Shown here one piece after another: positions 4,695 to 62,686 of a DNA stretch of 64,000 nucleotides. Numbering within the stretch: position 1 is the stretch's first letter; each line of letters begins with the position of its first letter. The notes below the pieces were generated by a model, which did not search any database, had not been told where the DNA came from, and saw only the letters and a list, made by a program, of their open reading frames with translations. The stretch is from Candidatus Nealsonbacteria bacterium DGGOD1a. Its GTDB lineage: Bacteria > Patescibacteriota > Minisyncoccia > Minisyncoccales > UBA5738. Location of the stretch: assembly GCA_022530585.1 (NCBI GenBank), contig CP092821.1, positions 905,128 through 969,127 on the forward strand, written 5' to 3'. A program made the position numbers and the translations under genes.

Positions 4695-4742
4695 TTGCGC
4701 AAGGTCGCACCTTGCAAGCTTGCAAGGTGCGACCTTGCGCAA
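4695..4742. repeat. REPIN-like perfect palindrome (family 1, core CAAGGTCGCACCTTGCA), 48 bp
   Basis: TTGCGCAAGGTCGCACCTTGCAAG followed by its exact reverse complement. Lies 15 nt beyond the stop of the Y1 transposase gene. Confidence 0.9.
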
Positions 4743-4756
4743 CTATTCCCTTGGGA

Positions 4757-5494
4757 TTACCGCGGTAATGACCCCTTGTTCTTGATCCAGCTCTCGGTAA
4801 ATTCCTTAACCGTTCTCATTCCTTTTCCAATATCATCGGATTTGGCAAAAACTTTCAATAGAAAATCTCTTGCCGTAACCGATGGAAAATTTTTAATTCC
4901 GATACTGTCCAAATAACTCGACCATTTGTAATTATTTAAAAATTCAATCGCGGCCTTCAAGTCCTTAACTCCCTCCGTCTTCCAATCCGCGTCGACAAGT
5001 TCAACCGGATTTGAAAATACATATTCCGCCAAATGAATGAATTGATTGTTGTCGCCGGCATGGACCGCTTTGAACCTGCCTTGGAACAACGCACCCATCC
5101 CTTTTCTTTCGTATCTGTCATTAAAATAACCCGTATAACTGTTGCTTAACTTTTTCATAAAAAGAGACACTCCATCGTTGACAAGCGGCCGTAAAATCAA
5201 ATGATAATGATTCGGCATCAAAACAAACGCAATAATGTCAACCAGCAGTTCCCTTTTATGGTTTGACAAGGTCGCACCTTGCAAGCTTGCAAGGTGCGAC
5301 CTTGTCAAACTTTTTTTCCGGCGATCTTGAATCCTTTGGGCCATTCTCACAAAATTGCGGTCATTGCATTCATAAAGAGAAAAAATAAAACGGTAATAAT
5401 CGGAGTCATCCATAAAAACAATTCTTTTCTCTACGCCGCGGTTAAAGGTATGGTAAACTTCGCCGACAATAAATTCCCGTTTTGAATTTGGCAT
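4757..5494 (-). CDS. REP-associated tyrosine transposase (RAYT) / IS200-like Y1 HUH transposase
   Basis: 245 aa, ATG confirmed. N-terminal GEVYHTFNRGVEKRIVF, HUH motif MPNHYHLILRP, Tyr motif AEYVFSNPVE. No tnpB partner. Bracketed by family-1 palindromes. Confidence 0.8.
   Translation of the reverse strand: MPNSKREFIVGEVYHTFNRGVEKRIVFMDDSDYYRFIFSLYECNDRNFVRMAQRIQDRRKKSLTRSHLASLQGATLSNHKRELLVDIIAFVLMPNHYHLILRPLVNDGVSLFMKKLSNSYTGYFNDRYERKGMGALFQGRFKAVHAGDNNQFIHLAEYVFSNPVELVDADWKTEGVKDLKAAIEFLNNYKWSSYLDSIGIKNFPSVTARDFLLKVFAKSDDIGKGMRTVKEFTESWIKNKGSLPR
5261..5310. repeat. Family-1 perfect palindrome (50 bp) located inside the RAYT coding sequence, in frame
   Basis: GTTTGACAAGGTCGCACCTTGCAAG plus its exact reverse complement. 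It encodes ...SLTRSHLASLQGATLSNHK... just upstream of the HUH motif. Confidence 0.9.
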
Positions 5495-5528
5495 AAATTT
5501 ATAATAACTAAATTATATCTAAGCCGAA

Positions 5529-5584
5529 AAAGTTGCGCAAGGTCGCACCTTGCAAGCTTGCAAGGTGCGACCTTGCGCAACTTT
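5529..5584. repeat. Family-1 perfect palindrome, 56 bp
   Basis: AAAGTTGCGCAAGGTCGCACCTTGCAAG plus its exact reverse complement, 35 nt upstream of the RAYT start codon. Confidence 0.9.
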
Positions 5585-8931: not shown

Positions 8932-8993
8932 AAGTTTTACAAGGTCGCACCTTGCACGATTGCAATCGTGCAAGGTGCGACCTTGTAAAACTT
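8932..8993. repeat. Family-1 palindrome variant, 62 bp perfect
   Basis: AAGTTTTACAAGGTCGCACCTTGCACGATTG plus its exact reverse complement. Same AAGGTCGCACCTTGCA core, different centre. Lies between the sigma and anti-sigma genes. Confidence 0.9.
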
Positions 8994-8994
8994 C

Positions 8995-9498
8995 TTAAGA
9001 CAATTTAGTTCGCAGTTCTTTCATTGCCCGATGGAGCAAAACCCGGGTGGCTTCTTCAGAGCGATCCAGAAGGTGGGACACCTCCTTGATCGGCATATCT
9101 TCAAGGTAACGCCAGATGATGGCGTTTTGGTAATCTTCGTTCAAATCCACCATGGCTTTGCGCACGGTTTCCATATCCGAAGCCAGAACCGCTCGCTGTT
9201 CCAGATCAACCTTGGTATCAGCCAGCTGGCTCTCGACCAGCTCCGGCGAAACCGTTTGAATCTTGGCTTTGGCGCGGTAATGGTCGATCACCAAATTTTT
9301 GGCGATTTTGTACAGAAAAGCCCGCGGGTTTTTAATTTCATTCGGATTTGTTTTATAACTCTCCCATCCTTTGGCGAAAGTTTCCGAAGTCAAATCCTGC
9401 GCGATTTCCTTTGAATTCACGCGCAAAAAGACAAACCGGTAGATTTTTTCCACATGGTCGTCATATATCCGGCTGAATTTTCCCTGAATTTTATCCAT
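8995..9498 (-). CDS. RNA polymerase ECF-type sigma-70 factor
   Basis: Region 2 (IYRFVFLRV..AQDLTSETFAKGW) and region 4 (IIWRYLEDMPIKEVSHLLDRSEEATRVLLHRAMKEL) signatures. Track start 9507 is TTG; first ATG is 9498. Confidence 0.85.
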   Translation of the reverse strand: MDKIQGKFSRIYDDHVEKIYRFVFLRVNSKEIAQDLTSETFAKGWESYKTNPNEIKNPRAFLYKIAKNLVIDHYRAKAKIQTVSPELVESQLADTKVDLEQRAVLASDMETVRKAMVDLNEDYQNAIIWRYLEDMPIKEVSHLLDRSEEATRVLLHRAMKELRTKLS

Positions 9499-10480: not shown

Positions 10481-10514
10481 AGAAATATTCCCCCCGTACA
10501 TATTGTTATCTTGG

Positions 10515-10641
10515 ATTGCGAAACCATTAAATTCAAATACCGTTGAAGGTCTAACCCTTGCGATTACGCAAGGGACAGACCCCAAAAGCCAAGCGCGACG
10601 CAATGCTCAAAGCATTGCAGTAGCAATGCTTTGAGCATTGC
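10515..10641 (+). repeat. Family-2 nested-stem element (copy A), followed by a 42-bp palindrome
   Basis: ATTGCGAAACCATTAAATTCAAATAC..GGTCTAACCCTTGCG-ATTA-CGCAAGGGACAGACC (core 10548-10581)..CCCAAAAGCCAAGCG. Then GCAATGCTCAAAGCATTGC-AGTA-GCAATGCTTTGAGCATTGC (10600-10641). Confidence 0.85.
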
Positions 10642-20883: not shown

Positions 20884-20896
20884 TTTCCGCGTTGTT

Positions 20897-20976
20897 TTGA
20901 ATCGCGAAATCGGGCGCGGTTAATCTTTTTCGCGGCGGCGCGGCAAAAGTTAACGGAGAACGGTTTCGCGATTCAA
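20897..20976. other. 80-nt stem-enclosed GC-rich element
   Basis: TTGAATCGCGAAA (20897-20909) pairs with TTTCGCGATTCAA (20964-20976), enclosing CGCGGCGGCGCGGC-rich sequence. Lies between the comEC stop and the glycosyltransferase start. Confidence 0.6.
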
Positions 20977-21055
20977 AGCCATTATTTAATCATATCAAAA
21001 AATCTTCGGCGCGCCAAAAAAGCGGAACCGCCCGATTAACAACGGGCGCGAAGAA

Positions 21056-27326: not shown

Positions 27327-27458
27327 TTCAATCAATCCTCTTTAAATTTTCAATGGTATTATTATACACGAAATATATAATTTGTCAAGGGTAGCGGAAA
27401 AACAAAACCCGGCGGGCGCCGGGATTGGGATAGACAAAAATACAAAATGCGGTTTGGC

Positions 27459-27520
27459 GAGGTTAGACCTCGGCGAGTATCCCTCGCTTCGCTCGGGACA
27501 AGCTACCGAGGACTAACCTC
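27459..27520. terminator. Hairpin element downstream of nrdD (15-bp stem, 1 mismatch)
   Basis: GAGGTTAGACCTCGG...CCGAGGACTAACCTC. The loop shares CTTGTCCCGAG..CGAGGG with the loop insertion of family-2 copy D. On the minus strand it is followed by ...CATTTTGTATTTTTG. Confidence 0.45.
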
Positions 27521-27544
27521 AAATACAAATACAAAATTCGAGGT

Positions 27545-34256: not shown

Positions 34257-34269
34257 ACCCTGCAGAAAT

Positions 34270-34386
34270 TTAAAGTTAAAAAATCAAAATAAAAAATGAC
34301 AATTTAAAATTAAAAGTTCAAAATGCGCGGACATTTTACATTTTGCATTGTCATTTTGATTTTTGATTTTTACATTTTAAATTTTC
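34270..34386. repeat. Family-5 AT-rich inverted-repeat cassette, copy 1
   Basis: AAAAATCAAAATAAAAAATGACAATTTAAAATT ... ATTTTACATTTTGCATTGTCATTTTGATTTTTGATTTTTACATTTTAAATTTT, between the ftsZ start and the ftsA stop. Confidence 0.85.
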
Positions 34387-34420
34387 GTTACCACCCTCCC
34401 GGAAAACCCCGCGACCGCTC

Positions 34421-35734: not shown

Positions 35735-35739
35735 GAAAC

Positions 35740-35895
35740 TAAAATTGTAAAATGTAAAAATCAAAAATCAAAATGACAATGTAAAATCATAAAATGTTTT
35801 TATCGCGGCATTTTAACATTTTCCCCGCCAAAGGACGGGTGCGCCTATGGCGCAAATTGTCATTTTTCATTTTGATTTTTTAACTTTAAATTTAA
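35740..35895. repeat. Family-5 cassette, copy 2 (centre has a GCGCC-TAT-GGCGC hairpin); overlaps the ybeY 3' end
   Basis: AAAATGTAAAAATCAAAAATCAAAATGACAATGTAAAAT ... AATTGTCATTTTTCATTTTGATTTTTTAACTTTAAATTT. The right arm encodes the ybeY C-terminus ...FKFKVKKSK and its stop codon. Confidence 0.85.
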
Positions 35896-39419: not shown

Positions 39420-39510
39420 AACGATGATTTTAACATAACATCAAATTTTATTGCAACAAAAAACAGGATTTCCCTGTTTTTTCCCGATTTTATTTTTTTA
39501 TAATCTTATT

Positions 39511-39626
39511 TTGAATTGCGAAACGCTTTGCATTTTGGGGTCTATCCCTTGCGCTTGTCCCGAGGCTTTTGCGAGGGGTAATCGCAAGGGTCAGACCCCT
39601 TTAGAGTATTTGAATTTAATGGTTTC
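39511..39626 (-). repeat. Family-2 nested-stem element (copy D, inverted orientation, extra insert in the loop)
   Basis: TTGAATTGCGAAACGCTTTGCATTTTGGGGTCTATCCCTTGCG[CTTGTCCCGAGGCTTTTGCGAGGGGTA]ATCGCAAGGGTCAGACCCCTTTAGAGTATTTGAATTTAATGGTTTC. Confidence 0.85.
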
Positions 39627-39649
39627 TTAATTCAAAAAATCTTATGTTT

Positions 39650-42127: not shown

Positions 42128-42139
42128 CGAACAAAGTTA

Positions 42140-42258
42140 AAAGATAAAAATCAAAATGAAAAATGACAATGTAAAATTAAAAATTATCAAATTTTAAAAT
42201 TGTTTCATTTTAAATTTTGAACTGTCATTTTTCATTTTGATTTTTACATTTTTAATTT
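42140..42258. repeat. Family-5 cassette, copy 3
   Basis: AAAAATCAAAATGAAAAATGACAATGTAAAATT ... ACTGTCATTTTTCATTTTGATTTTTACATTTTTAATTTT, between the hisS start and the lepB stop. Confidence 0.85.
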
Positions 42259-42816
42259 TTAGTACTTCGGTGTTTCAAACAAGGATATCTGGTCCAGCGG
42301 CCACAAGCGCACTTCCACCCGACCGATGATATCTTTTTTGGGCAGCTCCCCCCAATCTTGAGAGTCGGAAGAGTACGGCCGGTTGTCCCCCAAAACAAAA
42401 TACTGGCCGTCGCCCAGCTTGTACGAACTCATATCCGGCGCTTTAAGATTCGACGGAATGTACGGTTCGCTCAATGTCATGGTTGTACCGTCAACCGCGG
42501 TAACAACAACATTGCCGCTTTTGATCTCCACGGTTTCGCCCGGAAGGCCGATCACCCGCTTGATAAAGCGTTTGGAGGTGTCTAAAGGATATTTGAAAAC
42601 CACCACCTCTCCCCGCTCCGGCGCCCGGAACCGATAGGACAGTTCGTCAACGATCAAATAATCCGCCTCGTGGAAATTCGGCTCCATCGATGATCCTTGG
42701 ATCACGAACGGCTGAAACAGAAAATAACGCACCGGAATCACGATGGCAAACGCCAAAACCACGATCTTGGCCACTTCCCAAACAAATCCGCCCGCGCTTT
42801 TGATTGCCGATGACAT
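42259..42816 (-). CDS. lepB: Signal peptidase I
   Basis: GSSMEPNF (Ser), ...RVIGLPGE..., GDNRPYSSDSQDWG. Start moved to ATG 42816. Confidence 0.85.
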   Translation of the reverse strand: MSSAIKSAGGFVWEVAKIVVLAFAIVIPVRYFLFQPFVIQGSSMEPNFHEADYLIVDELSYRFRAPERGEVVVFKYPLDTSKRFIKRVIGLPGETVEIKSGNVVVTAVDGTTMTLSEPYIPSNLKAPDMSSYKLGDGQYFVLGDNRPYSSDSQDWGELPKKDIIGRVEVRLWPLDQISLFETPKY

Positions 42817-43500: not shown

Positions 43501-43511
43501 TTTAGCATTTT

Positions 43512-43551
43512 CAAGGTCGCACCTTGCCATAATCGGCAAGGTGCGACCTTG
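43512..43551. repeat. Family-1 hairpin variant (17-bp perfect stem)
   Basis: CAAGGTCGCACCTTGCC-ATAATC-GGCAAGGTGCGACCTTG, 12 nt after the pth stop. Confidence 0.9.
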
Positions 43552-43707
43552 CACAAACTGCATTTTGGAAACAAAAAAAGACCAGCCCTTCCAAAAAATT
43601 AAAAATTTCTTGATAGTGTCAATGGTCTCTATTTTTTAACCTCCGACAACCCCTCCTTATTACTCATTTTTCATCTCCTCCTTATAAAATTTTTTGCAAG
43701 TTTAAAA

Positions 43708-44595
43708 ATGGTGTATAGTAAAAAAGTGATGGATTACAACATCAAACATATCACTGAAGCCGATATTGAATTCCCCAATTGCTTGCGCACCATCCCCTCA
43801 CGGCCCAAAGAATTATATTTGCGCGGTATTTTGGATCCGGTTAAACCGTGCGTGGCCGTGGTTGGTTCGCGTATCCCGTCCACCTATGGCAAGCAAGCCG
43901 TCCACGATATTGTGAGCGGATTGTCCCGCGCCGGCGTTTGCGTTATCTCCGGTATGGCGCCGGGTATTGATACCTTGGCTCATCAAACCGCCTTGGAATG
44001 CAACGGCTTGACCGTTGGCGTAATCGGCACCGGATTGGACGAAAAATCGTTTTTCCCCAAACAAAACCTTGACTTGGCGACAAAAGTGGTTAATACTGGC
44101 GGTTGTTTGGTCAGCGAATACCCGGCAAGCTTTAAAGCCACCAACTACTCTTTCCCCCAGCGCAACCGCATCATCGCCGGCCTGTCGCTGGCAGTTCTGG
44201 TCATCGAAGCCAAGGAAAAATCCGGTTCGCTCATCACCGCCGAATGGGGTCGCAAACAGCACAAACCGGTGTTCGCGGTTCCCGGATCGATCTACTCGAC
44301 AAACTCCAAGGGCTGTAATTGGCTGTTAAAGAAAGGCGGGCTGGCCTGCGACTCCGCCTTGGATATTCTAAACGCCTTGGGTATCGCGCCAATATCGCCG
44401 AAAATCGCGGCAACGGCGGGTACCCCCGAAGAGCAAAAAATTCTCGACGCGTTAAAAAACGGAGCGTTGGATATCAATCAAATAATTCTGGCCGCCAAAC
44501 TCCCCGCCCCAACCGTGATCGGCCTGATCCCGGTTATGGAAATCAACAATATCATCCGCGATTTGGGCAACGGGGAATACTGCCTGAACAATTAA
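43708..44595 (+). CDS. dprA: DNA-processing protein DprA (Smf)
   Basis: ATG confirmed. VAVVGSRIPSTYG..., ISGMAPGIDTLAHQ, ...FPQRNRIIAGLS..., C-terminal wHTH-like tail. Confidence 0.85.
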   Translation: MVYSKKVMDYNIKHITEADIEFPNCLRTIPSRPKELYLRGILDPVKPCVAVVGSRIPSTYGKQAVHDIVSGLSRAGVCVISGMAPGIDTLAHQTALECNGLTVGVIGTGLDEKSFFPKQNLDLATKVVNTGGCLVSEYPASFKATNYSFPQRNRIIAGLSLAVLVIEAKEKSGSLITAEWGRKQHKPVFAVPGSIYSTNSKGCNWLLKKGGLACDSALDILNALGIAPISPKIAATAGTPEEQKILDALKNGALDINQIILAAKLPAPTVIGLIPVMEINNIIRDLGNGEYCLNN

Positions 44596-44596
44596 T

Positions 44597-44710
44597 TTAA
44601 AATCGAAAAATCAAAATGGAAAATGACAGTGTAAAATTTAAAATTATTGGATTCAAATTTTTTACATTTTAAATTGTCATTTTGATTTTTGATATTTACA
44701 TTTTTAATTT
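44597..44710. repeat. Family-5 cassette, copy 4
   Basis: AAAATCGAAAAATCAAAATGGAAAATGACAGTGTAAAATTT ... AAATTGTCATTTTGATTTTTGATATTTACATTTTTAATTTTT. Ends 2 nt before the topA ATG. Confidence 0.85.
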
Positions 44711-44712
44711 TT

Positions 44713-46833
44713 ATGGATCTCATCATTGTCGAATCGCCCACAAAAGCCCGGACTTTGCAAAAATTTTTAGGTTCGAACTATAAAATTCTGTCATCGTACG
44801 GCCATGTGCGCGATCTGCCCAAGGGCTCTTTTGGCGTTGATCTTGAAAATAATTTCACGCCGAAATACACCCTCACCGCCAAAGGCAAAACCACGATTAA
44901 AGAACTCAAAGCCGAAGTTAAAAAAGCCGACAAGATATTTTTAAGCACTGATCCGGACCGCGAAGGCGAAGCCATCGCGTGGCATTTGATCGAAGCCCTG
45001 AAACTGGACAAACCGGCCACCAAAAAAATTGAAGGCCCGGCTTATCGGCGCATTGAATTCCACGAAATCACCAAACGCGCCATTGATGAAGCCCTGCGAA
45101 ACCCCCGGGAACTTGATTTTAACTTGGTCAACGCCCAGCAAGCGCGCCGCGTTTTGGATCGCATCGTCGGCTATCAACTTTCCCCTTTCCTTTGGAAAAA
45201 AATCGCCAAAGGCCTGTCGGCCGGCCGCGTCCAGTCCGTGGCCGTACGGCTCATTGCCGAGCGCGAACGCGAAATTGAAGCCTTCAAGCCCGAAGAATAC
45301 TGGGAAGTTTTAGCGACCCTCAAAAACACCAAAAAACAACCGCTCAAAGAATTTGCCGCCAAGCTGGTGAAAATCAACGAAAAAGTTTTGGACAAGCTGG
45401 AAATCACCGATGAAGCCAAAGCGATTGATATTCAAAATGGCCTTGAAAACGCGCGCTATTCCATCGTCGCGATTGATAAAAAAGAAACCCGCAAGAATCC
45501 AAACCCGCCGTTCACCACTTCCACTCTCCAGCAAGCCGCGTGGCAAAAATTCCACCTCACGGCCAAAGCCGCAATGATGACCGCCCAACAATTGTACGAA
45601 ATGGGATTGATCACCTACCACCGCACCGACTCGCTCAATTTGTCGGAGCAGTCGCTGGCGGCGGCAAAACAATTCATCATTCAAACTTACGGAGAACAAT
45701 ACCATCCCGGCGGGTACAACACCTACAAAACCAAAGCCAAGGGCGCCCAAGAAGCCCACGAAGCCATCCGGCCGGCCTACCCGGAGCAAACCCCGGAAAT
45801 GGCTCAAACCGACAAAAATCTCACCCGGCCGCAATATAAATTATACGAGCTGATCTGGCAAAGATTTATCGCCTGCCAAATGACACCCGCGATTTTTGAC
45901 GGCATGAGCGTTGATATTGACGCGATTGGAGTTTCAAACACGAATTATGGCTTCAAGGCCAACGGCCAAACCTTGAAATTCGACGGTTATTTGAAAGTCT
46001 ATCCCTCAAAATTCGAACCGGTTGACTTGCCGGCGATGGAAACCGCCGAAGATTTGGAATTTATCAAACTTGATCCGACCCAGCATTTCACCAAGCCGCC
46101 GGCGCGCTTCAATGAAGCCAGCCTGATCAAAGCTCTGGAAGAATTCGGCATCGGGCGGCCGTCAACCTACGCGCCGATCATCACTACGATTCAAACCCGC
46201 AACTATATTGAAAAAGACGATAAAAAATCTTTCAAACCCACGGAAATGGGTCTGATGGTCAATGACATTCTGGTGGCGCACTTTCCGCGGATCGTGGATA
46301 TCGGTTTTACCGCCAAAATGGAAGAAGAATTCGATGAAATCGCCCAAGGGTCGATGGATTGGGTAAAGATGATGCGCGATTTCTACGCGCCGTTCAAGGA
46401 AAACTTGGATGCCAAATATAAAGAAGTGGAAAGCAAAAAAACCCAAGTGGTCGCCACCGATAAAATTTGCCCCAAGTGCGGCGCGAATCTGGTGATTAAA
46501 ATGGGACGCTTCGGAAAATTCTACGCCTGCCCCAAATTTCCGGAATGCAAGCACACCGAAAATATGGAACCGGCCAAGCCCGCGTTTGATGTGGAAATCC
46601 CCTGCCCCAAATGCGGGACCGGCCACATCGTGGAAAAGAAAACGAAAAAACGAAAAATTTTCTACGGCTGTTCGGCCTACCCCGATTGCGACTTCGCCCT
46701 CTGGGACAAACCCACCGGCGCCAAGTGCGAAAAATGCGGCAGCATAATGATCGAAACCAAACGCAAGCAAGTGAAATGCTCCAACAAAGAATGTTCAGCA
46801 AATGCAAAATTGAAAAATCAAAATGAAAAATGA
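44713..46833 (+). CDS. topA: DNA topoisomerase I
   Basis: Toprim LIIVESPTKA, DPDREGEAIAWH, active-site region GLITYHRTDS, four C-terminal CxxC...CxxC zinc ribbons. Start moved to ATG 44713. Confidence 0.95.
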   Translation: MDLIIVESPTKARTLQKFLGSNYKILSSYGHVRDLPKGSFGVDLENNFTPKYTLTAKGKTTIKELKAEVKKADKIFLSTDPDREGEAIAWHLIEALKLDKPATKKIEGPAYRRIEFHEITKRAIDEALRNPRELDFNLVNAQQARRVLDRIVGYQLSPFLWKKIAKGLSAGRVQSVAVRLIAEREREIEAFKPEEYWEVLATLKNTKKQPLKEFAAKLVKINEKVLDKLEITDEAKAIDIQNGLENARYSIVAIDKKETRKNPNPPFTTSTLQQAAWQKFHLTAKAAMMTAQQLYEMGLITYHRTDSLNLSEQSLAAAKQFIIQTYGEQYHPGGYNTYKTKAKGAQEAHEAIRPAYPEQTPEMAQTDKNLTRPQYKLYELIWQRFIACQMTPAIFDGMSVDIDAIGVSNTNYGFKANGQTLKFDGYLKVYPSKFEPVDLPAMETAEDLEFIKLDPTQHFTKPPARFNEASLIKALEEFGIGRPSTYAPIITTIQTRNYIEKDDKKSFKPTEMGLMVNDILVAHFPRIVDIGFTAKMEEEFDEIAQGSMDWVKMMRDFYAPFKENLDAKYKEVESKKTQVVATDKICPKCGANLVIKMGRFGKFYACPKFPECKHTENMEPAKPAFDVEIPCPKCGTGHIVEKKTKKRKIFYGCSAYPDCDFALWDKPTGAKCEKCGSIMIETKRKQVKCSNKECSANAKLKNQNEK

Positions 46834-46920
46834 CAATTAAAAATGTAAAATTTATAATTCAATAATTTTAAATTTTACATTGTCATTTTGATTTTTGATT
46901 TTTACATTTTAAATTTTTAT
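46808..46920. repeat. Family-5 cassette, copy 5; overlaps the topA 3' end
   Basis: AAATTGAAAAATCAAAATGAAAAATGACAATTAAAAATGTAAAATTT ... ATTTTACATTGTCATTTTGATTTTTGATTTTTACATTTTAAATTTTT. The left arm encodes topA ...KLKNQNEK and its stop codon. Confidence 0.85.
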
Positions 46921-47020
46921 TTTTCTCTTGATTTTTCCCCAATTTCGCGCTACCCTACAATCATCAATTTGAAGATTGGCGGTGCATTATGTCATTGTTA
47001 TCTTTAGTTCCTAACTTTTT

Positions 47021-47427: not shown

Positions 47428-47443
47428 AATTTTATAAAATTTT

Positions 47444-47487
47444 TCAAAAGGGTCCGACCCTTTTTAAAAAGGGTCGGACCCTTTTGA
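47444..47487. repeat. Family-3 perfect palindrome (44 bp), core AAAAGGGTC(C/G)GACCCTTTT
   Basis: TCAAAAGGGTCCGACCCTTTTT plus its exact reverse complement, 17 nt upstream of the DUF134 start. Confidence 0.9.
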
Positions 47488-48859: not shown

Positions 48860-48889
48860 CAATGTTTTGTCAAGCCAAAAGGGCGATTA

Positions 48890-50357
48890 TGTCATTTAAA
48901 AGTAGTAATGTCATACTTGCGTCCAAGTAGAAATGTCATACCTGGTATGATTGGTGGATAAAACATAACCCACCAATATGGAAAAAGAATTATTCAAGAT
49001 GACGCAAAAAGAGCTGGACAGGTATGAAGTAATAAGAAAATTGATCGCCAAAGAAATCACTCCGGGCGATGCGGCCAAGCAGCTGGGGCGGTCGGTAAGG
49101 CAGGTAAAGCGATTGCGCAACAAAGTGCGGGAGAAAGGCGCCAATGGGATCATTCACGGCTTGCGAGGCAAGCAAAGCAACAATAAGACCGATCTTAAAA
49201 TCTGGGAAAAATCCGGACAAATAATTTCAGAAAAGTATCCTGATTTCGGCCCGACCTTGGCGCATGAAAAACTGGTTGAGGTTGAAGGAATAAAAATTGG
49301 CAAGCAGACCACGCGCAATTTAATGATCGCAAAAAAGATTTGGATGCCCAAACCAAGAAAACAAAACCAGGAATTCCGCTGCCAAAGAGAACGCAAAGAA
49401 TCGCCGGGCGAGCTGGAACAATTCGACGGCTGTTACCACTTCTGGTTTGAGAAACGCGGCGATGAATCTTGTTTGTTGGCCTCCGTCGACGATGCCACCG
49501 GCCGGATCACCCGGGCGGAATTCACGGATAGCGAAAGCGTCATCAATGTGTTTCAATTCTGGAAAGGCTACCTCCAAGAATCAGGCAAACCGATAGCCAT
49601 CTACCTGGATAAATTCAGTACATATAAGATCAATCACAAAAATGCAAAAGACAACAGCGAAATGATCACCCAGTTTCAGAGAGCCGCCCGGGAACTGGAT
49701 ATAACCCTGATCACCGCCAACAGCCCGCAAGCCAAAGGCCGAATCGAACGGCTCTTTGACACTTTGCAGGACCGGCTGGTCAAGGAATTGCGATTGCGCG
49801 GCATCAGCGATATCGCCGCGGCCAGCAAATTCTTAAAAGAAGAATTCATTCCGGATTTCAATCAAAGATTTTCGGTGATTCCCAAAAAGAAAAACGATCT
49901 GCACCGGCAGCTGCCCGATTTTCAAAGTTCAAATCTTGACGCGATATTTTCCGTCCAATCGCAAAGGCGGGTACAGAATGATTTCACGATAAGGTTCAAA
50001 AACCAATGGATACAGATCGCCAAAGAGCAGATCGCCACCGTGCGCCGCAAGGATGAAATTTTGATGGAAGAGCGGCTCGACGGATCGCTGGCGATCCGTC
50101 TGCGGGATAAATATTTAAACTTCAAAATCCTGCCGGCCAAGCCGTTGAAAGCCAAAGAATTGATTGCCGCCATACCGGCAAAAAGAATCATCTCCAAGCC
50201 ACCGGCGGATCATCCTTGGCGCAAACAAATCGCCGCTGAAATCGCAAAAATCAATTGTTAAAATATTTTTCCGGAAATAACAATACTAATTCTACAAAAG
50301 TCAAGTATGACATTTCTACTTAAATTCCGGGTATGACATTTCTACTTGTATTTGACA
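48890..50357 (+). mobile_element. Intact insertion sequence (1468 bp), IS1202/ISNCY-like, with a 16-bp target-site duplication
   Basis: Ends TGTCATTTAAAAGTAGTAATGTCATAC (left) and GTATGACATTTCTACTTGTATTTGACA (right) form imperfect IRs. Each end carries two AAGTAG(A/T)AATGTCATAC motifs. Flanked by the direct repeat GCCAAAAGGGCGATTA (48874-48889 and 50358-50373). Confidence 0.85.
48978..50261 (+). CDS. DDE transposase (rve/integrase core) with N-terminal HTH
   Basis: 427 aa, ATG confirmed. N-terminal TQKELDRYEVIRKLIAKEITPGDAAKQLGRSVRQVKRLRNKVREKGANGIIHGLRGKQSN. DDE candidates VDDATG, YLDKFSTY, QAKGRIERLF. Confidence 0.85.
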   Translation: MEKELFKMTQKELDRYEVIRKLIAKEITPGDAAKQLGRSVRQVKRLRNKVREKGANGIIHGLRGKQSNNKTDLKIWEKSGQIISEKYPDFGPTLAHEKLVEVEGIKIGKQTTRNLMIAKKIWMPKPRKQNQEFRCQRERKESPGELEQFDGCYHFWFEKRGDESCLLASVDDATGRITRAEFTDSESVINVFQFWKGYLQESGKPIAIYLDKFSTYKINHKNAKDNSEMITQFQRAARELDITLITANSPQAKGRIERLFDTLQDRLVKELRLRGISDIAAASKFLKEEFIPDFNQRFSVIPKKKNDLHRQLPDFQSSNLDAIFSVQSQRRVQNDFTIRFKNQWIQIAKEQIATVRRKDEILMEERLDGSLAIRLRDKYLNFKILPAKPLKAKELIAAIPAKRIISKPPADHPWRKQIAAEIAKINC

Positions 50358-50364
50358 GCCAAAA

Positions 50365-50390
50365 GGGCGATTACATGGAATCGCCCCTAC
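50365..50390 (+). repeat. Family-4 GTAG-tailed hairpin (target of the IS insertion)
   Basis: GGGCGATTACATGGAATCGCCCCTAC. Its left arm is part of the IS target-site duplication. Confidence 0.85.
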
Positions 50391-50399
50391 AAATCCAAT

Positions 50400-51536
50400 T
50401 CATATTCCCAAATTCGGTTCGGATGTCAAATCATCAGGGCTGGCAACCGCCTCCCCCCTTTTAAAAGCAAAGTAGCCCGCGACTCCGGCCATGGCCGCGT
50501 TATCCATTGATAAATCCGCGCCGGGCGCGAGAAATTTCATATTCAGTTCATCAGCCGCTTTTTGCATTGCCTCGCGCAAAGCCGCATTGGCGCTCACGCC
50601 GCCGCCGATAATGATTGATTTGGCGGCAAATTCTTTGGCCGCCCGCGCCGTTTTTGAAACCAGCACATCAACGATCGCCTGTTGAATCTCAAAACTCATC
50701 ATTCGCGGATATTCCGGCGATTTTCGCGTTTCTTCGTTCTGCTTTTGATGCGCGTACAGCACCGCGGTTTTCAATCCCGAAAAACTGAAATTGTAATTTT
50801 TTTGGGCAATCATCGGCCGCGGCAATTTGACTTTGGTTTCCGAAGGAGCATCTAAAAGGGTCGGACCCTTTTTATTCAAAAAGGGTCCGACCCTTTTAGA
50901 ATATTTTTGGGCATATTTTGCAATCTCCGGGCCGCCGGGATAGCCCAAGCCCAAAATGCGCGCGGCTTTGTCAAAACACTCGCCCGCCGCGTCATCTTGG
51001 GTTTGTCCCAGCAATTTGTAATCGCCGATGCCGCTAGCCAAGAACAACAGCGTGTGTCCGCCCGAAACCACCAAACAAACCGCCGGCAAATAGTTTTTGG
51101 CAAATTTTTCTTCGCCGATTTTCAAAGTTATCAAATTCGCCAAAAAATGCGCCTCCAAATGATTGGCTCCCGCCAACGGCAAGTTGTATTTCTTCGCCAA
51201 ATCTTGCGCGAAATTTATTCCCGTCCATAGGCACGGATCCAAGCCCGGCCCTTGCGTTACGACGATAAATTTTAATTTTGATAAATCAAATTTTTTTGTC
51301 GCGTCTTCAAAAACGAAAGGCAGATTTTTCTGATGCTCGCGTTTTGCCAAAAACGGATACACTCCGCCGTATCCGGCGTGCAATTCGGTTTGCGAAGAAA
51401 CAACATTGGACAGCGCCTCAATCTTCTCCAATTTCCCCTTATCCTCCTTTGCCCGCAAAACGCTGATTGAAGTGTCGTCGCAAGAAGTCTCAATCGCCAA
51501 AAAATACAGTTCTCCGCCTTTTTTTGCAAATTGCAT
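50400..51536 (-). CDS. tsaD: tRNA N6-adenosine threonylcarbamoyltransferase TsaD, carrying a ~17-aa palindrome-encoded insertion
   Basis: ATG confirmed. IETSCDDTSISV, ANHLEAH, GLGYPGGPEI, NFSFSGLKT, IIGGGVSAN. See repeat 50851-50900. Confidence 0.9.
   Translation of the reverse strand: MQFAKKGGELYFLAIETSCDDTSISVLRAKEDKGKLEKIEALSNVVSSQTELHAGYGGVYPFLAKREHQKNLPFVFEDATKKFDLSKLKFIVVTQGPGLDPCLWTGINFAQDLAKKYNLPLAGANHLEAHFLANLITLKIGEEKFAKNYLPAVCLVVSGGHTLLFLASGIGDYKLLGQTQDDAAGECFDKAARILGLGYPGGPEIAKYAQKYSKRVGPFLNKKGPTLLDAPSETKVKLPRPMIAQKNYNFSFSGLKTAVLYAHQKQNEETRKSPEYPRMMSFEIQQAIVDVLVSKTARAAKEFAAKSIIIGGGVSANAALREAMQKAADELNMKFLAPGADLSMDNAAMAGVAGYFAFKRGEAVASPDDLTSEPNLGI
50851..50900. repeat. Family-3 palindrome (23-bp perfect arms, 4-nt centre) inside tsaD, in frame
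   Basis: TCTAAAAGGGTCGGACCCTTTTT-ATTC-AAAAAGGGTCCGACCCTTTTAGA. It encodes SKRVGPFLNKKGPTLL. Confidence 0.9.
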
Positions 51537-51549
51537 AATTGCTTTAAAT

Positions 51550-51643
51550 TACGAAACCATTGAATGCGAATGCTTTAAAGCGGTCTAACCCTTGCGATTA
51601 CGCAAGGGATAGACCCCAAATGCAAAGCGGTTCGCAATTCAAG
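51550..51643 (+). repeat. Family-2 nested-stem element (copy B)
   Basis: TACGAAACCATTGAATGCGAATGCTTTAAAGCGGTCTAACCCTTGCGATTACGCAAGGGATAGACCCCAAATGCAAAGCGGTTCGCAATTCAAG, immediately upstream of the tsaD start. Confidence 0.85.
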
Positions 51644-51665
51644 ATAATTGATAATTCATTGAAAA

Positions 51666-54241: not shown

Positions 54242-54267
54242 TTATTATTTATAATTTTCTTGAATTA

Positions 54268-54360
54268 AGAAATCATTAAATACGAATGCTATTACAGGGG
54301 TCTAACCCTTGCGATTACACAAGGGATAGACCCCAAATGCAAAGCGTTTCGCAACTCAAA
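54268..54360 (+). repeat. Family-2 nested-stem element (copy C)
   Basis: AGAAATCATTAAATACGAATGCTATTACAGGGGTCTAACCCTTGCGATTACACAAGGGATAGACCCCAAATGCAAAGCGTTTCGCAACTCAAA, upstream of the GlmU-like start. Confidence 0.85.
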
Positions 54361-54478
54361 GTAATTTATAGCTCGTGAGTTTGAAAATTTCCCGGATAAT
54401 TTTTAAAATGTTGAAATCAAATGTTGAAATCAAATATCAACAGCTTAAAAACTTTGTTGATATTTGATTTCAACAGCG

Positions 54479-61471: not shown

Positions 61472-62686
61472 TTATTTTGCCGCACCGTTACCCCGATAGC
61501 ATCTTGCTTTCAAAGAAATGTCTGTGATTTTGTCGCAGATGGAAATATCTTGTTTCGCAATACCAACCCCCGAATAGCACTTTTCTTTGTTGCTTTGGTC
61601 GGCGATTTCACCACATATTTCCAAGTTTTGTTCGACAGCCGCAATCCTCATAAAACATTCGTCTTTCTGGTATTTTGAGTTGCCATCATATACCATGATC
61701 ATGTCGCATATCGCTGTATCTTTTCTGGCGACACCGATTTCTTTATAACACCAAACTTTTTCGGGTTCATATTTGATTTGATCGCAAATTGAAAGATCGT
61801 TTTTGGCAACGCCAACGCCCTCATAACAAAAATCTTTTTCCTTATTGTAATTAACCTCTATCATGTCGCAGATCGACAAATCTTGTTTGGCGATACCGAT
61901 CTTTTCATAACAATAGTCTCTATCGTGTGACCGATTTGTCGCTTTTTTACAAATTGTCAAATCTTGTTTGGCGATACTAAGTTCTCGGTAACAAAGGTTC
62001 TTATTGTCTTGGTTCATGATCAACGGGCAAAGGCTTATTGAAAAGACCGCATTTAAAAAACCAAGTTGCACGAATGTGAACATTATTGCTCCAAACGCAA
62101 TAACACCCGTCAGCAAGGAAAATGGAATAACTGATTTTATTAATTTTGGCAGCGTTTTTTCATTCAATGTAACAATCTGAGCAGACTCATTTTTGAATAT
62201 TTTGCTTAAAAAAATAATGAGACCTGCAATATATGTGAATATCGAAATAATACTAATAACGAAAAGGAGCAATTCAATTGGGCCGCCGATTTGCGTATTC
62301 AGCAGGCGAGAAATTAAAAAGTTGGGATTATATTTGCAATACGAATCGCCACAATCATTATAGGTATTAAAAAAGACGAATAAAACTTGCGGTATCAAAA
62401 CTAAAACTGTAAAAAATACCGGATAAAAAATCACTGATTTTTTTTGGTTCCAATTGAAAATTATCTTTAACGGCACCACAATACCCATGAGAAGGTAAAA
62501 CAAAAAAGAAAGCGGAATTGTGATCAATCCGCTCCAACCATTAAAAGTTAATAAAGAAAACTGAAAACTCGCGTAGCAGTATATTATCCATAGCAACAAA
62601 AAAAGGATTGCATTGATCTTAAGCGACGGCTTTAACAACGGTTCGAAGATACTATTAAATTTATTTTTTTCCATGCTGTTCAGCAT
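61472..62686 (-). CDS. Polytopic membrane protein with 6-7 C-terminal Cys-pair tandem repeats
   Basis: ATG confirmed. About 6 TM segments, then repeats of CYxxxG(I/V)AKxD(L/I)SICDxI every 26-31 aa (CYEKIGIAKQDLSICDMI, CYEGVGVAKNDLSICDQI, CYKEIGVARKDTAICDMI, CYSGVGIAKQDISICDKI...). Confidence 0.6.
   Translation of the reverse strand: MLNSMEKNKFNSIFEPLLKPSLKINAILFLLLWIIYCYASFQFSLLTFNGWSGLITIPLSFLFYLLMGIVVPLKIIFNWNQKKSVIFYPVFFTVLVLIPQVLFVFFNTYNDCGDSYCKYNPNFLISRLLNTQIGGPIELLLFVISIISIFTYIAGLIIFLSKIFKNESAQIVTLNEKTLPKLIKSVIPFSLLTGVIAFGAIMFTFVQLGFLNAVFSISLCPLIMNQDNKNLCYRELSIAKQDLTICKKATNRSHDRDYCYEKIGIAKQDLSICDMIEVNYNKEKDFCYEGVGVAKNDLSICDQIKYEPEKVWCYKEIGVARKDTAICDMIMVYDGNSKYQKDECFMRIAAVEQNLEICGEIADQSNKEKCYSGVGIAKQDISICDKITDISLKARCYRGNGAAK

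Follow-up and report, generated by a model that had tools for sequence, protein, structure and literature searches.

Transposable elements of the miniature inverted-repeat type (MITEs) are known from several bacteria, e.g., Correia/NEMIS in Neisseria, RUP in Streptococcus pneumoniae and ERIC/IRU in enterobacteria, and are often co-transcribed with neighbouring genes. Rickettsia palindromic elements (RPEs) are palindromes that lie in frame within protein genes and are translated. The literature on repetitive extragenic palindromic (REP) sequences and REP-associated tyrosine transposases (RAYTs) includes Nunvar 2010. It further comprises the description of REP doublets (REPINs), which adopt alternative forms, one long hairpin or two small hairpins (Bertels and Rainey 2011, PMC3116915), a second study of REPINs and RAYTs (Bertels 2017, PMC5581495) and the structure of TnpA-REP (4ER8, PMC3479197); one REP trait is a conserved tag, GTAG or CGTC, that terminates the palindrome on one side (Di Nocera 2013, PMC3733652). 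Here we describe a palindromic element of ~103 nt that recurs in a 64,000-nt stretch of Candidatus Nealsonbacteria bacterium DGGOD1a (contig CP092821.1; the whole stretch is called the window). From the repeats, their ends, the flanking duplications, the presence or absence at orthologous sites, the RAYT-like gene with its flanking REPs and the stem covariation observed here, we conclude that the element is probably a composite, a MITE chassis carrying a REPIN-like core as cargo, which spreads by transposition and whose possible effects on neighbouring genes would be by-products. MITEs and REP/RAYT systems are both well described, and the modest twist is the REPIN-like core within a duplication-making MITE.

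Like the bacterial MITEs, the element is about 100 bp long and non-coding, is bounded by terminal inverted repeats, can form a long hairpin over its entire length, has short target-site duplications, lies in intergenic DNA near gene starts and is present or absent among close relatives. Unlike the MITEs named above, to which it has no sequence similarity, it has a 7-bp AT-rich duplication rather than TA, it resides in a patescibacterial host, and its interior rather than its ends is best conserved and also exists as an independent repeat. The core resembles a REPIN in that two imperfect palindromes of ~17 nt, in inverted orientation, make up a doublet able to form one long or two small hairpins. 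The first-pass annotation had placed four copies in the window, and reading and aligning the four regions confirmed these places; the extent given for copy A was too long, its true end being at 10612 and the rest (10613-10641) belonging to a separate 19-bp hairpin. The elements, with the four copies named as MITEs, are:

10509-10612, plus strand: MITE copy A, with 5' repeat TCTTGGATTGCGAAAC, core hairpin at 10546-10583 and 3' end GCAATGCTCAAAG (nhmmer 89 bits)
51542-51643, plus strand: MITE copy B, with the 7-bp duplication ATAATTG at 51535-51541 and 51644-51650
54258-54361, plus strand: MITE copy C, with the 6-bp duplication TAATTT at 54252-54257 and 54362-54367
39510-39637, minus strand: MITE copy D, with a 25-nt loop insert and the 8-bp duplication ATAAGATT at 39638-39645 and 39502-39509
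20894-20979, no strand assigned: fifth element, an unrelated interior between terminal repeats TTTGAATCGCGAAAT / GTTTCGCGATTCAAAG as in copies A-D
10597-10641, no strand assigned: perfect 19-bp hairpin GCAATGCTCAAAGCATTGC-AGTA-GCAATGCTTTGAGCATTGC, overlapping the 3' terminal repeat of copy A

The copies span 102-128 bp and have no coding capacity (no open reading frame, ORF). The core halves GGTCTRACCCTTGYGATTA and CAAGGGAYAGACCCCAAA each match at the four claimed places; the two half-patterns yield 4-5 matches apiece, where shuffles predict 0.03-0.05. An outer helix had been proposed and does exist, as a terminal inverted repeat of 14-16 nt (TTGAATTRCGAAAC / GTTTCGYAATTCAA) that is longer than claimed and that is found in every full-length copy as YYTTGAATTRCGAAAC ... 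GTTTCGYAATTCAARR. The inner stem, correctly described as 15 bp with a single internal A.A mismatch, reaches 17 bp once the flanking GG/CC is counted, has the loop ATTA and is near-invariant across copies. The 25-nt insert in the apical loop of copy D is equally real, as is its likeness to the hairpin after nrdD, the module (C/T)CCCTCG..CTCGGGACAAGC recurring at 27450-27522 and also at L013 2519-2629 (L001-L046 label the loci compared with the window, and P-numbers label protein orthologs). This loop-insert variant is also present in L005 (UBA5738) and, being common to the window and L005, indicates that variants propagate. The 3' terminal repeat of copy A forms the basis of the hairpin at 10597-10641, which may be what is left of another element end in inverted orientation.

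Three copies adjoin minus-strand gene starts, as had been noted: copies A, B and C lie 28, 5 and 16 nt from the start codons of the HTH_DeoR protein (10480), TsaD (51536) and the GlmU-like protein (54241), respectively. Copy D begins 12 nt past the yqeY stop codon and is oriented like yqeY, and the fifth element sits 10 nt upstream of a minus-strand start codon.

Among the identities offered in the first-pass annotation (ncRNA, cis-regulator or MITE), the MITE is supported by the terminal inverted repeats, copy-specific duplications, orthologous presence/absence, solo ends and swapped cargo. Target-site duplications were looked for and found, as AT-rich flanking direct repeats of 6-8 bp whose sequence varies by copy and whose distance from the terminal-repeat cores is constant: ATAATTG (copy B and L036), (A)TAAGATT (copy D), GAATTTA (L026), TAATTT (copy C), AAATTA (L005) and G(A)TTTTA (L020). 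With this geometry fixed, ten insertions were compared with 90 control pairs, in which the left and right flanks came from different copies. A match of 7/7 is seen in three of the ten insertions (B, D and L026) and in none of the 90 mismatched pairs; a match of at least 6/7 is seen in six of the ten (adding C, L005 and L020) versus 10% of the mismatched pairs. The observed mean match was reached by 0 of 50,000 permutations (p<2e-5), and a looser test gave p~0.0005.

Orthologous sites occur with and without the element. The synteny around the GlmU-like gene is kept in relatives. In L036/L037, where the GlmU-like protein shares 92% identity with that of the window, the CofD-GlmU gap measures 63 nt and does not contain copy C. 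Copy B is found in the BadF-TsaD gap of L036 too, at the same position and with the same flanking 7-mer, and is absent from the more distant relatives L039, L041 and L042; it has thus been retained in two lineages. The first duplicate of copy B, i.e., the same 7-mer, overlaps the tsaD start codon (CAATTAT, followed by G), so the element has split an essential gene from its original upstream region. Copy A has an identical counterpart in L030 and L043, and the corresponding gap between the LTD and HTH genes is occupied in L044 and L045 by palindromic doublets that differ from copy A and from each other, and has no such doublet in L046.

We note that, in L041 (14303-14392) and L042 (6226-6341), both without copy B, the BadF-TsaD gap is filled by another AT-rich palindrome with GATTTAAG / CTTAAATC repeats; the different palindromes in this gap indicate that the same intergenic sites have been colonised repeatedly by different palindromic elements.

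The terminal repeats also occur apart from the core. Unrelated interiors lie between them at 20894-20979 of the window and at L033 8149-8323, and solo ends are present in L020, L021, L026 and L036. In the loci compared, a terminal-repeat pattern search for a parent insertion sequence (IS) returned small elements and solo ends only. The IS-like insertion at 48.87-50.37 kb was ruled out as the parent, its ends being unrelated. A 1060-aa window protein and a 1062-aa protein of L020, considered as marking an additional empty site, are not orthologous, and the comparison was dropped.

The core itself consists of two inverted small hairpin units, CAAGGG-TCTAA-CCCTTG and CAAGGG-ATAGA-CCCTT(G), separated by a 6-nt spacer, and the A.A mismatch reflects a single base by which the loops of the two units differ. 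Searching with a profile built from full-length copies detects diverged hairpins at 27450-27522 of the window, at L001 7646-7713 and L013 2519-2629, and at L041 21066-21146 and 16884-16942; the L041 21066 copy is missing from the orthologous site of L042. These hairpins preserve the geometry, including the mismatch at the same stem position, and their stem letters change compensatorily, as in GGGG-TCTA-A-CCCTTGCG / CGCAAGGG-A-TAGA-CCCC versus the stem of the following feature:

27450-27522, plus strand: diverged superfamily hairpin (GAGG-TTAG-A-CCTCGG / CCGAGG-A-CTAA-CCTC), with the loop module of copy D and A.A at the same position

In an alignment of 22 distinct superfamily members, 92.9% of the stem cells are paired, versus 28-55% with the partner slid, and both sides change in 9 of the 16 stem pairs. 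The departures from pairing include G.U and A.C types, about equally many, so that neither RNA strand is favoured. The covariation check that had been proposed for an RNA therefore came out strong across subfamilies, and not strand-specific, as for a DNA palindrome; going by the alignment, the pattern suits a DNA palindrome whose hairpin form matters.

The earlier account of the inner hairpin missed that it is of the REP-doublet type and is related to palindromes that flank a RAYT-like gene ~5 kb from copy A. This gene and the REP doublets of the window are:

4757-5494, minus strand: RAYT-like Y1 (HUH) transposase gene, 245 aa (PF01797, E 6e-9)
5527-5580, no strand assigned: REP doublet GTTGCGCAAGG-TCGCA-CCTTGC-AAGCTT-GCAAGG-TGCGA-CCTTGCGCAAC, directly upstream of the RAYT-like gene
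4695-4747, no strand assigned: TCGCA-type REP doublet, directly downstream of the RAYT-like gene
5258-5315, no strand assigned: TCGCA-type REP doublet, in frame within the RAYT-like ORF
8935-8996, no strand assigned: TCGCA-type REP doublet, dispersed
43505-43555, no strand assigned: TCGCA-type REP doublet, dispersed
47443-47487, no strand assigned: REP doublet AAGGG-TCCGA-CCCTT / AAGGG-TCGGA-CCCTT, with a three-G stem as in the core unit of copies A-D

The ORF at 4757-5494 is annotated Y1_Tnp (via neighbouring-protein extension of the window), in agreement with Pfam. Its best NCBIfam model is NF047646, 'REP-associated tyrosine transposase' (45.6 bits, below the cut-off of 80), and the sole specific match in the PDB, E. 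coli TnpA-REP (4ER8), has an E-value of 0.07 and an alignment that includes the HUH motif and the Tyr-containing helix; HYH and the catalytic Tyr are invariant in the RAYT-like alignment. Orthologs with 67-72% identity occupy the same syntenic position, which is common to four related genomes (L043-L046), in the shared order LTD, HTH_DeoR, sigma-70, DUF5667, a ~700-aa protein and the transposase. More than 2000 RAYT homologs are on record. In three relatives the same REP unit stands on either side of the ortholog; it forms doublets in L044 and L045, whereas in L046 each side has a single hairpin. Judged by the predicted protein and the repeats around it, the gene with its flanking doublets presents a classical REP/RAYT arrangement: a Y1/HUH gene at a conserved chromosomal position, a related doublet on both sides and more copies dispersed. 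Unlike in described systems, the protein falls below the NCBIfam cut-off and is distant from 4ER8, and the GTAG or CGTC tag is absent at the ends of the REP palindromes, where the flanks read (G/A)TTGCAAGG.

The RAYT-flanking unit (GCAAGG-TCGCA-CCTTGC, 6-nt spacer) and the core unit (GCAAGGG-TCTAA-CCCTTGC, 6-nt spacer) differ by one extra G:C pair in the core and by two loop bases. In a further departure from REP/RAYT systems, the three-G unit with the TCTAA loop is not seen beside a RAYT; in the window it occurs only inside the duplication-making MITE, so that MITE transposition is the best explanation for its spread in this genome. Intergenic REP doublets, e.g., the one at 47443-47487, have no target-site duplication. 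Apart from the window gene and its orthologs, a search for further RAYTs near canonical hairpins gave a single paralog, in L026 (31% identity), which is flanked by a different, AT-rich doublet (L026 487-541 and 1284-1338). The repeat flanking this paralog is also seen next to copy C, as a doublet TGTTGAAATCAAATATCAACA...TGTTGATATTTGATTTCAACA at ~54400-54470 of the window, and hence at least two REP/RAYT pairs circulate in these genomes.

The presence of this gene raises the alternative that all ~103 nt form one large REPIN that the RAYT-like Y1 transposase mobilises on its own as single-stranded DNA, with the terminal repeats as outer REP parts and with no DDE enzyme involved. The RAYT-like gene and its flanking doublets do lie in the same window; next to the RAYT orthologs in L044/L045, the doublets have (TT)GAATTGTGCAAGG at their flanks, a sequence similar to the MITE end TTGAATTGCGAAAC; either strand of the entire element can fold into a single long hairpin (z -3.4 to -7.9); and its alternative long-hairpin and two-small-hairpin forms match the REPIN description (PMC3116915). 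However, the copy-specific duplications of 6-8 bp are significant, although the Y1 mechanism makes none, and these ends also bound interiors without a REP unit, whereas hairpin-only copies lack these ends. Transposition of the IS200/IS605 type, catalysed by Y1 enzymes, leaves no target-site duplication, and to our knowledge REPINs are not known to make them. We regard a purely REPIN-based element as unlikely.

Sister palindromes of the REP type are also found within coding sequence. The REP doublet at 5258-5315 sits just N-terminal of the HUH motif of the RAYT-like protein and encodes the peptide SHLAS(L)QGATL, which is kept in the orthologs P0121, P0123, P0126, P0127 and P0140 and is missing from the more distant P0178; this distribution marks an old, retained insertion. 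In tsaD (50400-51536, minus strand), a palindromic doublet AAAAGGGTCGGACCCTTTTTGAATAAAAAGGGTCCGACCCTTTT lies in frame at 50852-50897, where it encodes SKRVGPFLNKKGPTLL, and has its intergenic twin at 47443-47487; the same loop of TsaD contains different palindromes in L036 (~4340) and L041 (15056-15094) and is 13 aa shorter in L039. As in RPEs, which the tsaD doublet resembles, these palindromes in tsaD and the RAYT-like gene are in frame and add short peptide inserts in a variable loop; unlike in RPEs, there is no sequence similarity, and the likeness concerns the sister palindromes, not copies A-D.

Homologs of the window proteins carry the names Candidatus Paceibacterota or Patescibacteria, the organisms are present in samples from anaerobic digesters and landfill, and copies beyond the window lie on contigs of UBA5738, LQYC01 and Ga0394088. 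A scan of a genome collection with the 5' arm and loop found the hairpin in metagenome-assembled genomes of Patescibacteria (L001, L003, L004, L005, L008 and L013), and a single bin under the label Pacearchaeota (L011) has it too; the remaining eight matches, in coding sequence of unrelated bacteria, were dismissed as chance. A metagenome scan with variable stem positions and loop length added 19 stretches. The full-length form with terminal repeats is found in the window, L005, L018, L020, L026 and L036, and the hairpin-only form without them in L001, L003, L004, L008, L011, L013, L016/L029 and L033. The L011 hairpin has many near-identical copies and lies upstream of uvrB, and the L013 hairpin lies upstream of a dnaB-like start. 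In addition, L017/L025 and L022 carry perfect-palindrome variants, and L021/L032 a variant with a GC-rich outer helix. The element had no match by blastn against phage and plasmid collections or in a pattern scan of viral contigs.

The archaeal label of L011 (DAOSDI010000001.1, labelled Candidatus Pacearchaeota) is probably an error of binning or naming: the contig has a bacterial uvrB-like gene behind the same hairpin and is almost the same in sequence as metagenome contigs of Paceibacteria (L019, L028 and others). In L034 (Ga0209450_10142835, 69% GC), palindromes built on the core-arm word GGTCTGACCCTTG are repeated at 1343-1480; they could have arisen by convergence or be a kindred REP carried by an organism that is unrelated.

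The first-pass annotation had also considered an ncRNA, a 5' leader or a cis-regulator, and this regulatory-RNA reading is not supported. It would make the element a structured cis-acting RNA (5' leader, RNase III or stability hairpin, or translational operator), with mobility secondary. Six of the ten elements with these ends stand 5-28 nt upstream of a start codon, copy B abuts the tsaD start in both lineages that keep it, and hairpin-only copies, better conserved than their flanks, stand 3-12 nt before dnaB, uvrB and other starts. Moreover, the folds are very stable (-27 to -53 kcal/mol), and the stem covaries strongly around an A.A mismatch at a fixed position. Set against these points, the elements occur in both orientations relative to the adjacent gene. 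At start codons, copies A, B and C of the window and the L005 copy are antisense to the gene and the L020 copy is sense; copy D is also sense, yet lies downstream of a stop codon. The neighbouring genes (the HTH_DeoR protein, TsaD, the GlmU-like transferase and YqeY) are functionally unrelated. Intergenic gaps are very short here, so that any intergenic insertion ends up by a start or stop codon.

Neither folding nor sequence signals point to one transcript strand. Both strands form the long hairpin, with z -3.4 to -7.9; the antisense strand folds somewhat better for copies A-C and worse for the fifth element, and copy D is at odds with the direction of transcription. Together with the unbiased stem departures, in which A.C types are about as many as G.U types, there is no strand preference of the kind that selection on an RNA would produce. 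In the window, Rfam detects a tRNA-Leu alone, and relaxing the threshold to E<=10 brings no match close to the elements; seven related loci gave nothing, and a permissive scan returned chance miRNA/UTR models far below their cut-offs. Scans for sigma-70 promoters and intrinsic terminators around all copies revealed nothing consistent inside the elements or at their ends. Attempts by eye to fit -35/-10 boxes or a sigma-54 site to the hairpin were defeated by the spacing. We judge a cis-acting RNA to be rather improbable as the identity of the element.

Two other roles for the hairpin were weighed. If the hairpins were bidirectional intrinsic terminators, repeated by chance, it would be understandable that hairpin-only copies often lie between A-runs and T-runs (AAAAGGGTC...GACCCTTTT) and that copy D and several other copies directly follow stop codons. 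The full-length copies, however, have no T-tract after the stem, the terminator scan called none of them, several copies stand 3-28 nt before starts of essential genes with no space for a new promoter, and a separate canonical terminator lies downstream of copy D, all of which makes this explanation very unlikely.

The core hairpin could also be compared to attC, as a recombination site for an integron-type or Xer-type tyrosine recombinase. The attC consensus is RYYYAAC for R'' and GTTRRRY for R'. In the present hairpins GTCTAAC fits R'', GTTAGAC of the perfect-palindrome variants fits R', and the palindrome is imperfect with a fixed mismatch. Nevertheless, at 34-40 nt the hairpin is below the known length of attC (55-140 nt), the copies are single and dispersed by housekeeping genes rather than in cassette arrays, the TCGCA and TTAGA/ACTAA subfamilies do not fit the consensus, and a degenerate 7-mer arises by chance in a 34-nt motif at the several-percent level. 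No integrase is seen near any copy, no systematic integrase/intI search having been made. On grounds of length, context and subfamily inconsistency we reject an attC-like site and leave it barely any probability.

Several observations weigh against a composite of MITE and REPIN-like cargo. Conservation is higher in the core hairpin than in the terminal repeats, an uncommon pattern in a plain MITE that could reflect selection at the host or RNA level, and hairpin-only copies are kept at one site upstream of uvrB in diverged species whose flanks have diverged (L008 versus L011). Of the ten duplications, four match poorly (4-5 of 7 positions). The terminal-repeat pattern search found no autonomous element with these ends in ~470 kb of related sequence, and the sequence base comprises 64 kb of genome and fragments. 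In the loci compared, tblastn and profile searches found no RAYT flanked by the exact TCTAA-type unit, the window gene having the TCGCA type; the REPIN origin of the core is therefore argued from architecture and sequence similarity.

As a mechanism for the composite, we propose that the element inserts into AT-rich intergenic DNA, where a staggered cut would leave the 7-bp (6-8 bp) target-site duplication. It would be mobilised in trans, presumably by a transposase that we infer to be of the DDE type. The palindrome carried as cargo has the architecture of a REPIN (REP doublet), from which it may derive. In other Patescibacteria, the hairpin-only core probably spreads as a REP/REPIN, its single-stranded hairpin being recognised by a RAYT. 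Effects on neighbouring genes are possible, as a stable hairpin stands 5-28 nt before three start codons, e.g., in the 5' untranslated region of tsaD; such effects would be by-products and not the function of the element.

On a broader scale, it is conceivable, though we consider it somewhat doubtful, that Paceibacteria, with genomes of ~1 Mb, keep a vertically inherited RAYT together with diverse REPIN palindromes, whose stems co-vary by genome and which have been captured by a MITE and are tolerated within tsaD and the RAYT gene. If so, capture by a MITE would give a REPIN a second, RAYT-independent route of spread, and the Candidate Phyla Radiation (CPR) would have its first described REPIN-RAYT system, along with the first example of a REPIN hitch-hiking in a MITE. 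The literature searched contained no paper joining RAYT/REPIN, MITEs or palindromic repeats with Patescibacteria. If the RAYT link holds, these genomes would offer a compact natural system for the persistence of REPINs and a domesticated transposase, and for palindromic insertions that shape untranslated regions and protein loops in minimal genomes. For annotation of Patescibacteria, nested hairpins of this kind should be masked as mobile repeats rather than called riboswitch-like leaders or small RNAs. In streamlined, ultra-small CPR genomes, two kinds of selfish DNA that look active, a MITE and a REP/RAYT system, still persist, with some insertions abutting start codons of essential genes and sister palindromes translated within proteins.

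The window contains other repeats as well. The IS-like insertion mentioned above (~48870-50375) is absent from L036 and L041 and contains a 427-aa ORF (48978-50261, plus strand) with HTH_23/HTH_29 domains. Two 18-bp repeats in inverted orientation (AAGTAGAAATGTCATACC) are found at each of its ends; both borders also carry GCCAAAAGGGCGATTA as a direct repeat, which seems to lie within a hairpin. A second AT-rich palindromic family of ~120 nt (…AAAAATCAAAATGAAAAATGACAATGTAAAAT… and its complement) has five intergenic copies:

34266-34401, intergenic: second AT-rich family
35736-35811, intergenic: second AT-rich family
42133-42275, intergenic: second AT-rich family
44593-44727, intergenic: second AT-rich family
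46800-46933, intergenic: second AT-rich family

Finally, the ORF at 61472-62686 (minus strand), for whose protein a look-up returned no entry, contains five tandem, diverged repeats of ~80 nt at 61536-62007, and its product is probably a repeat protein.

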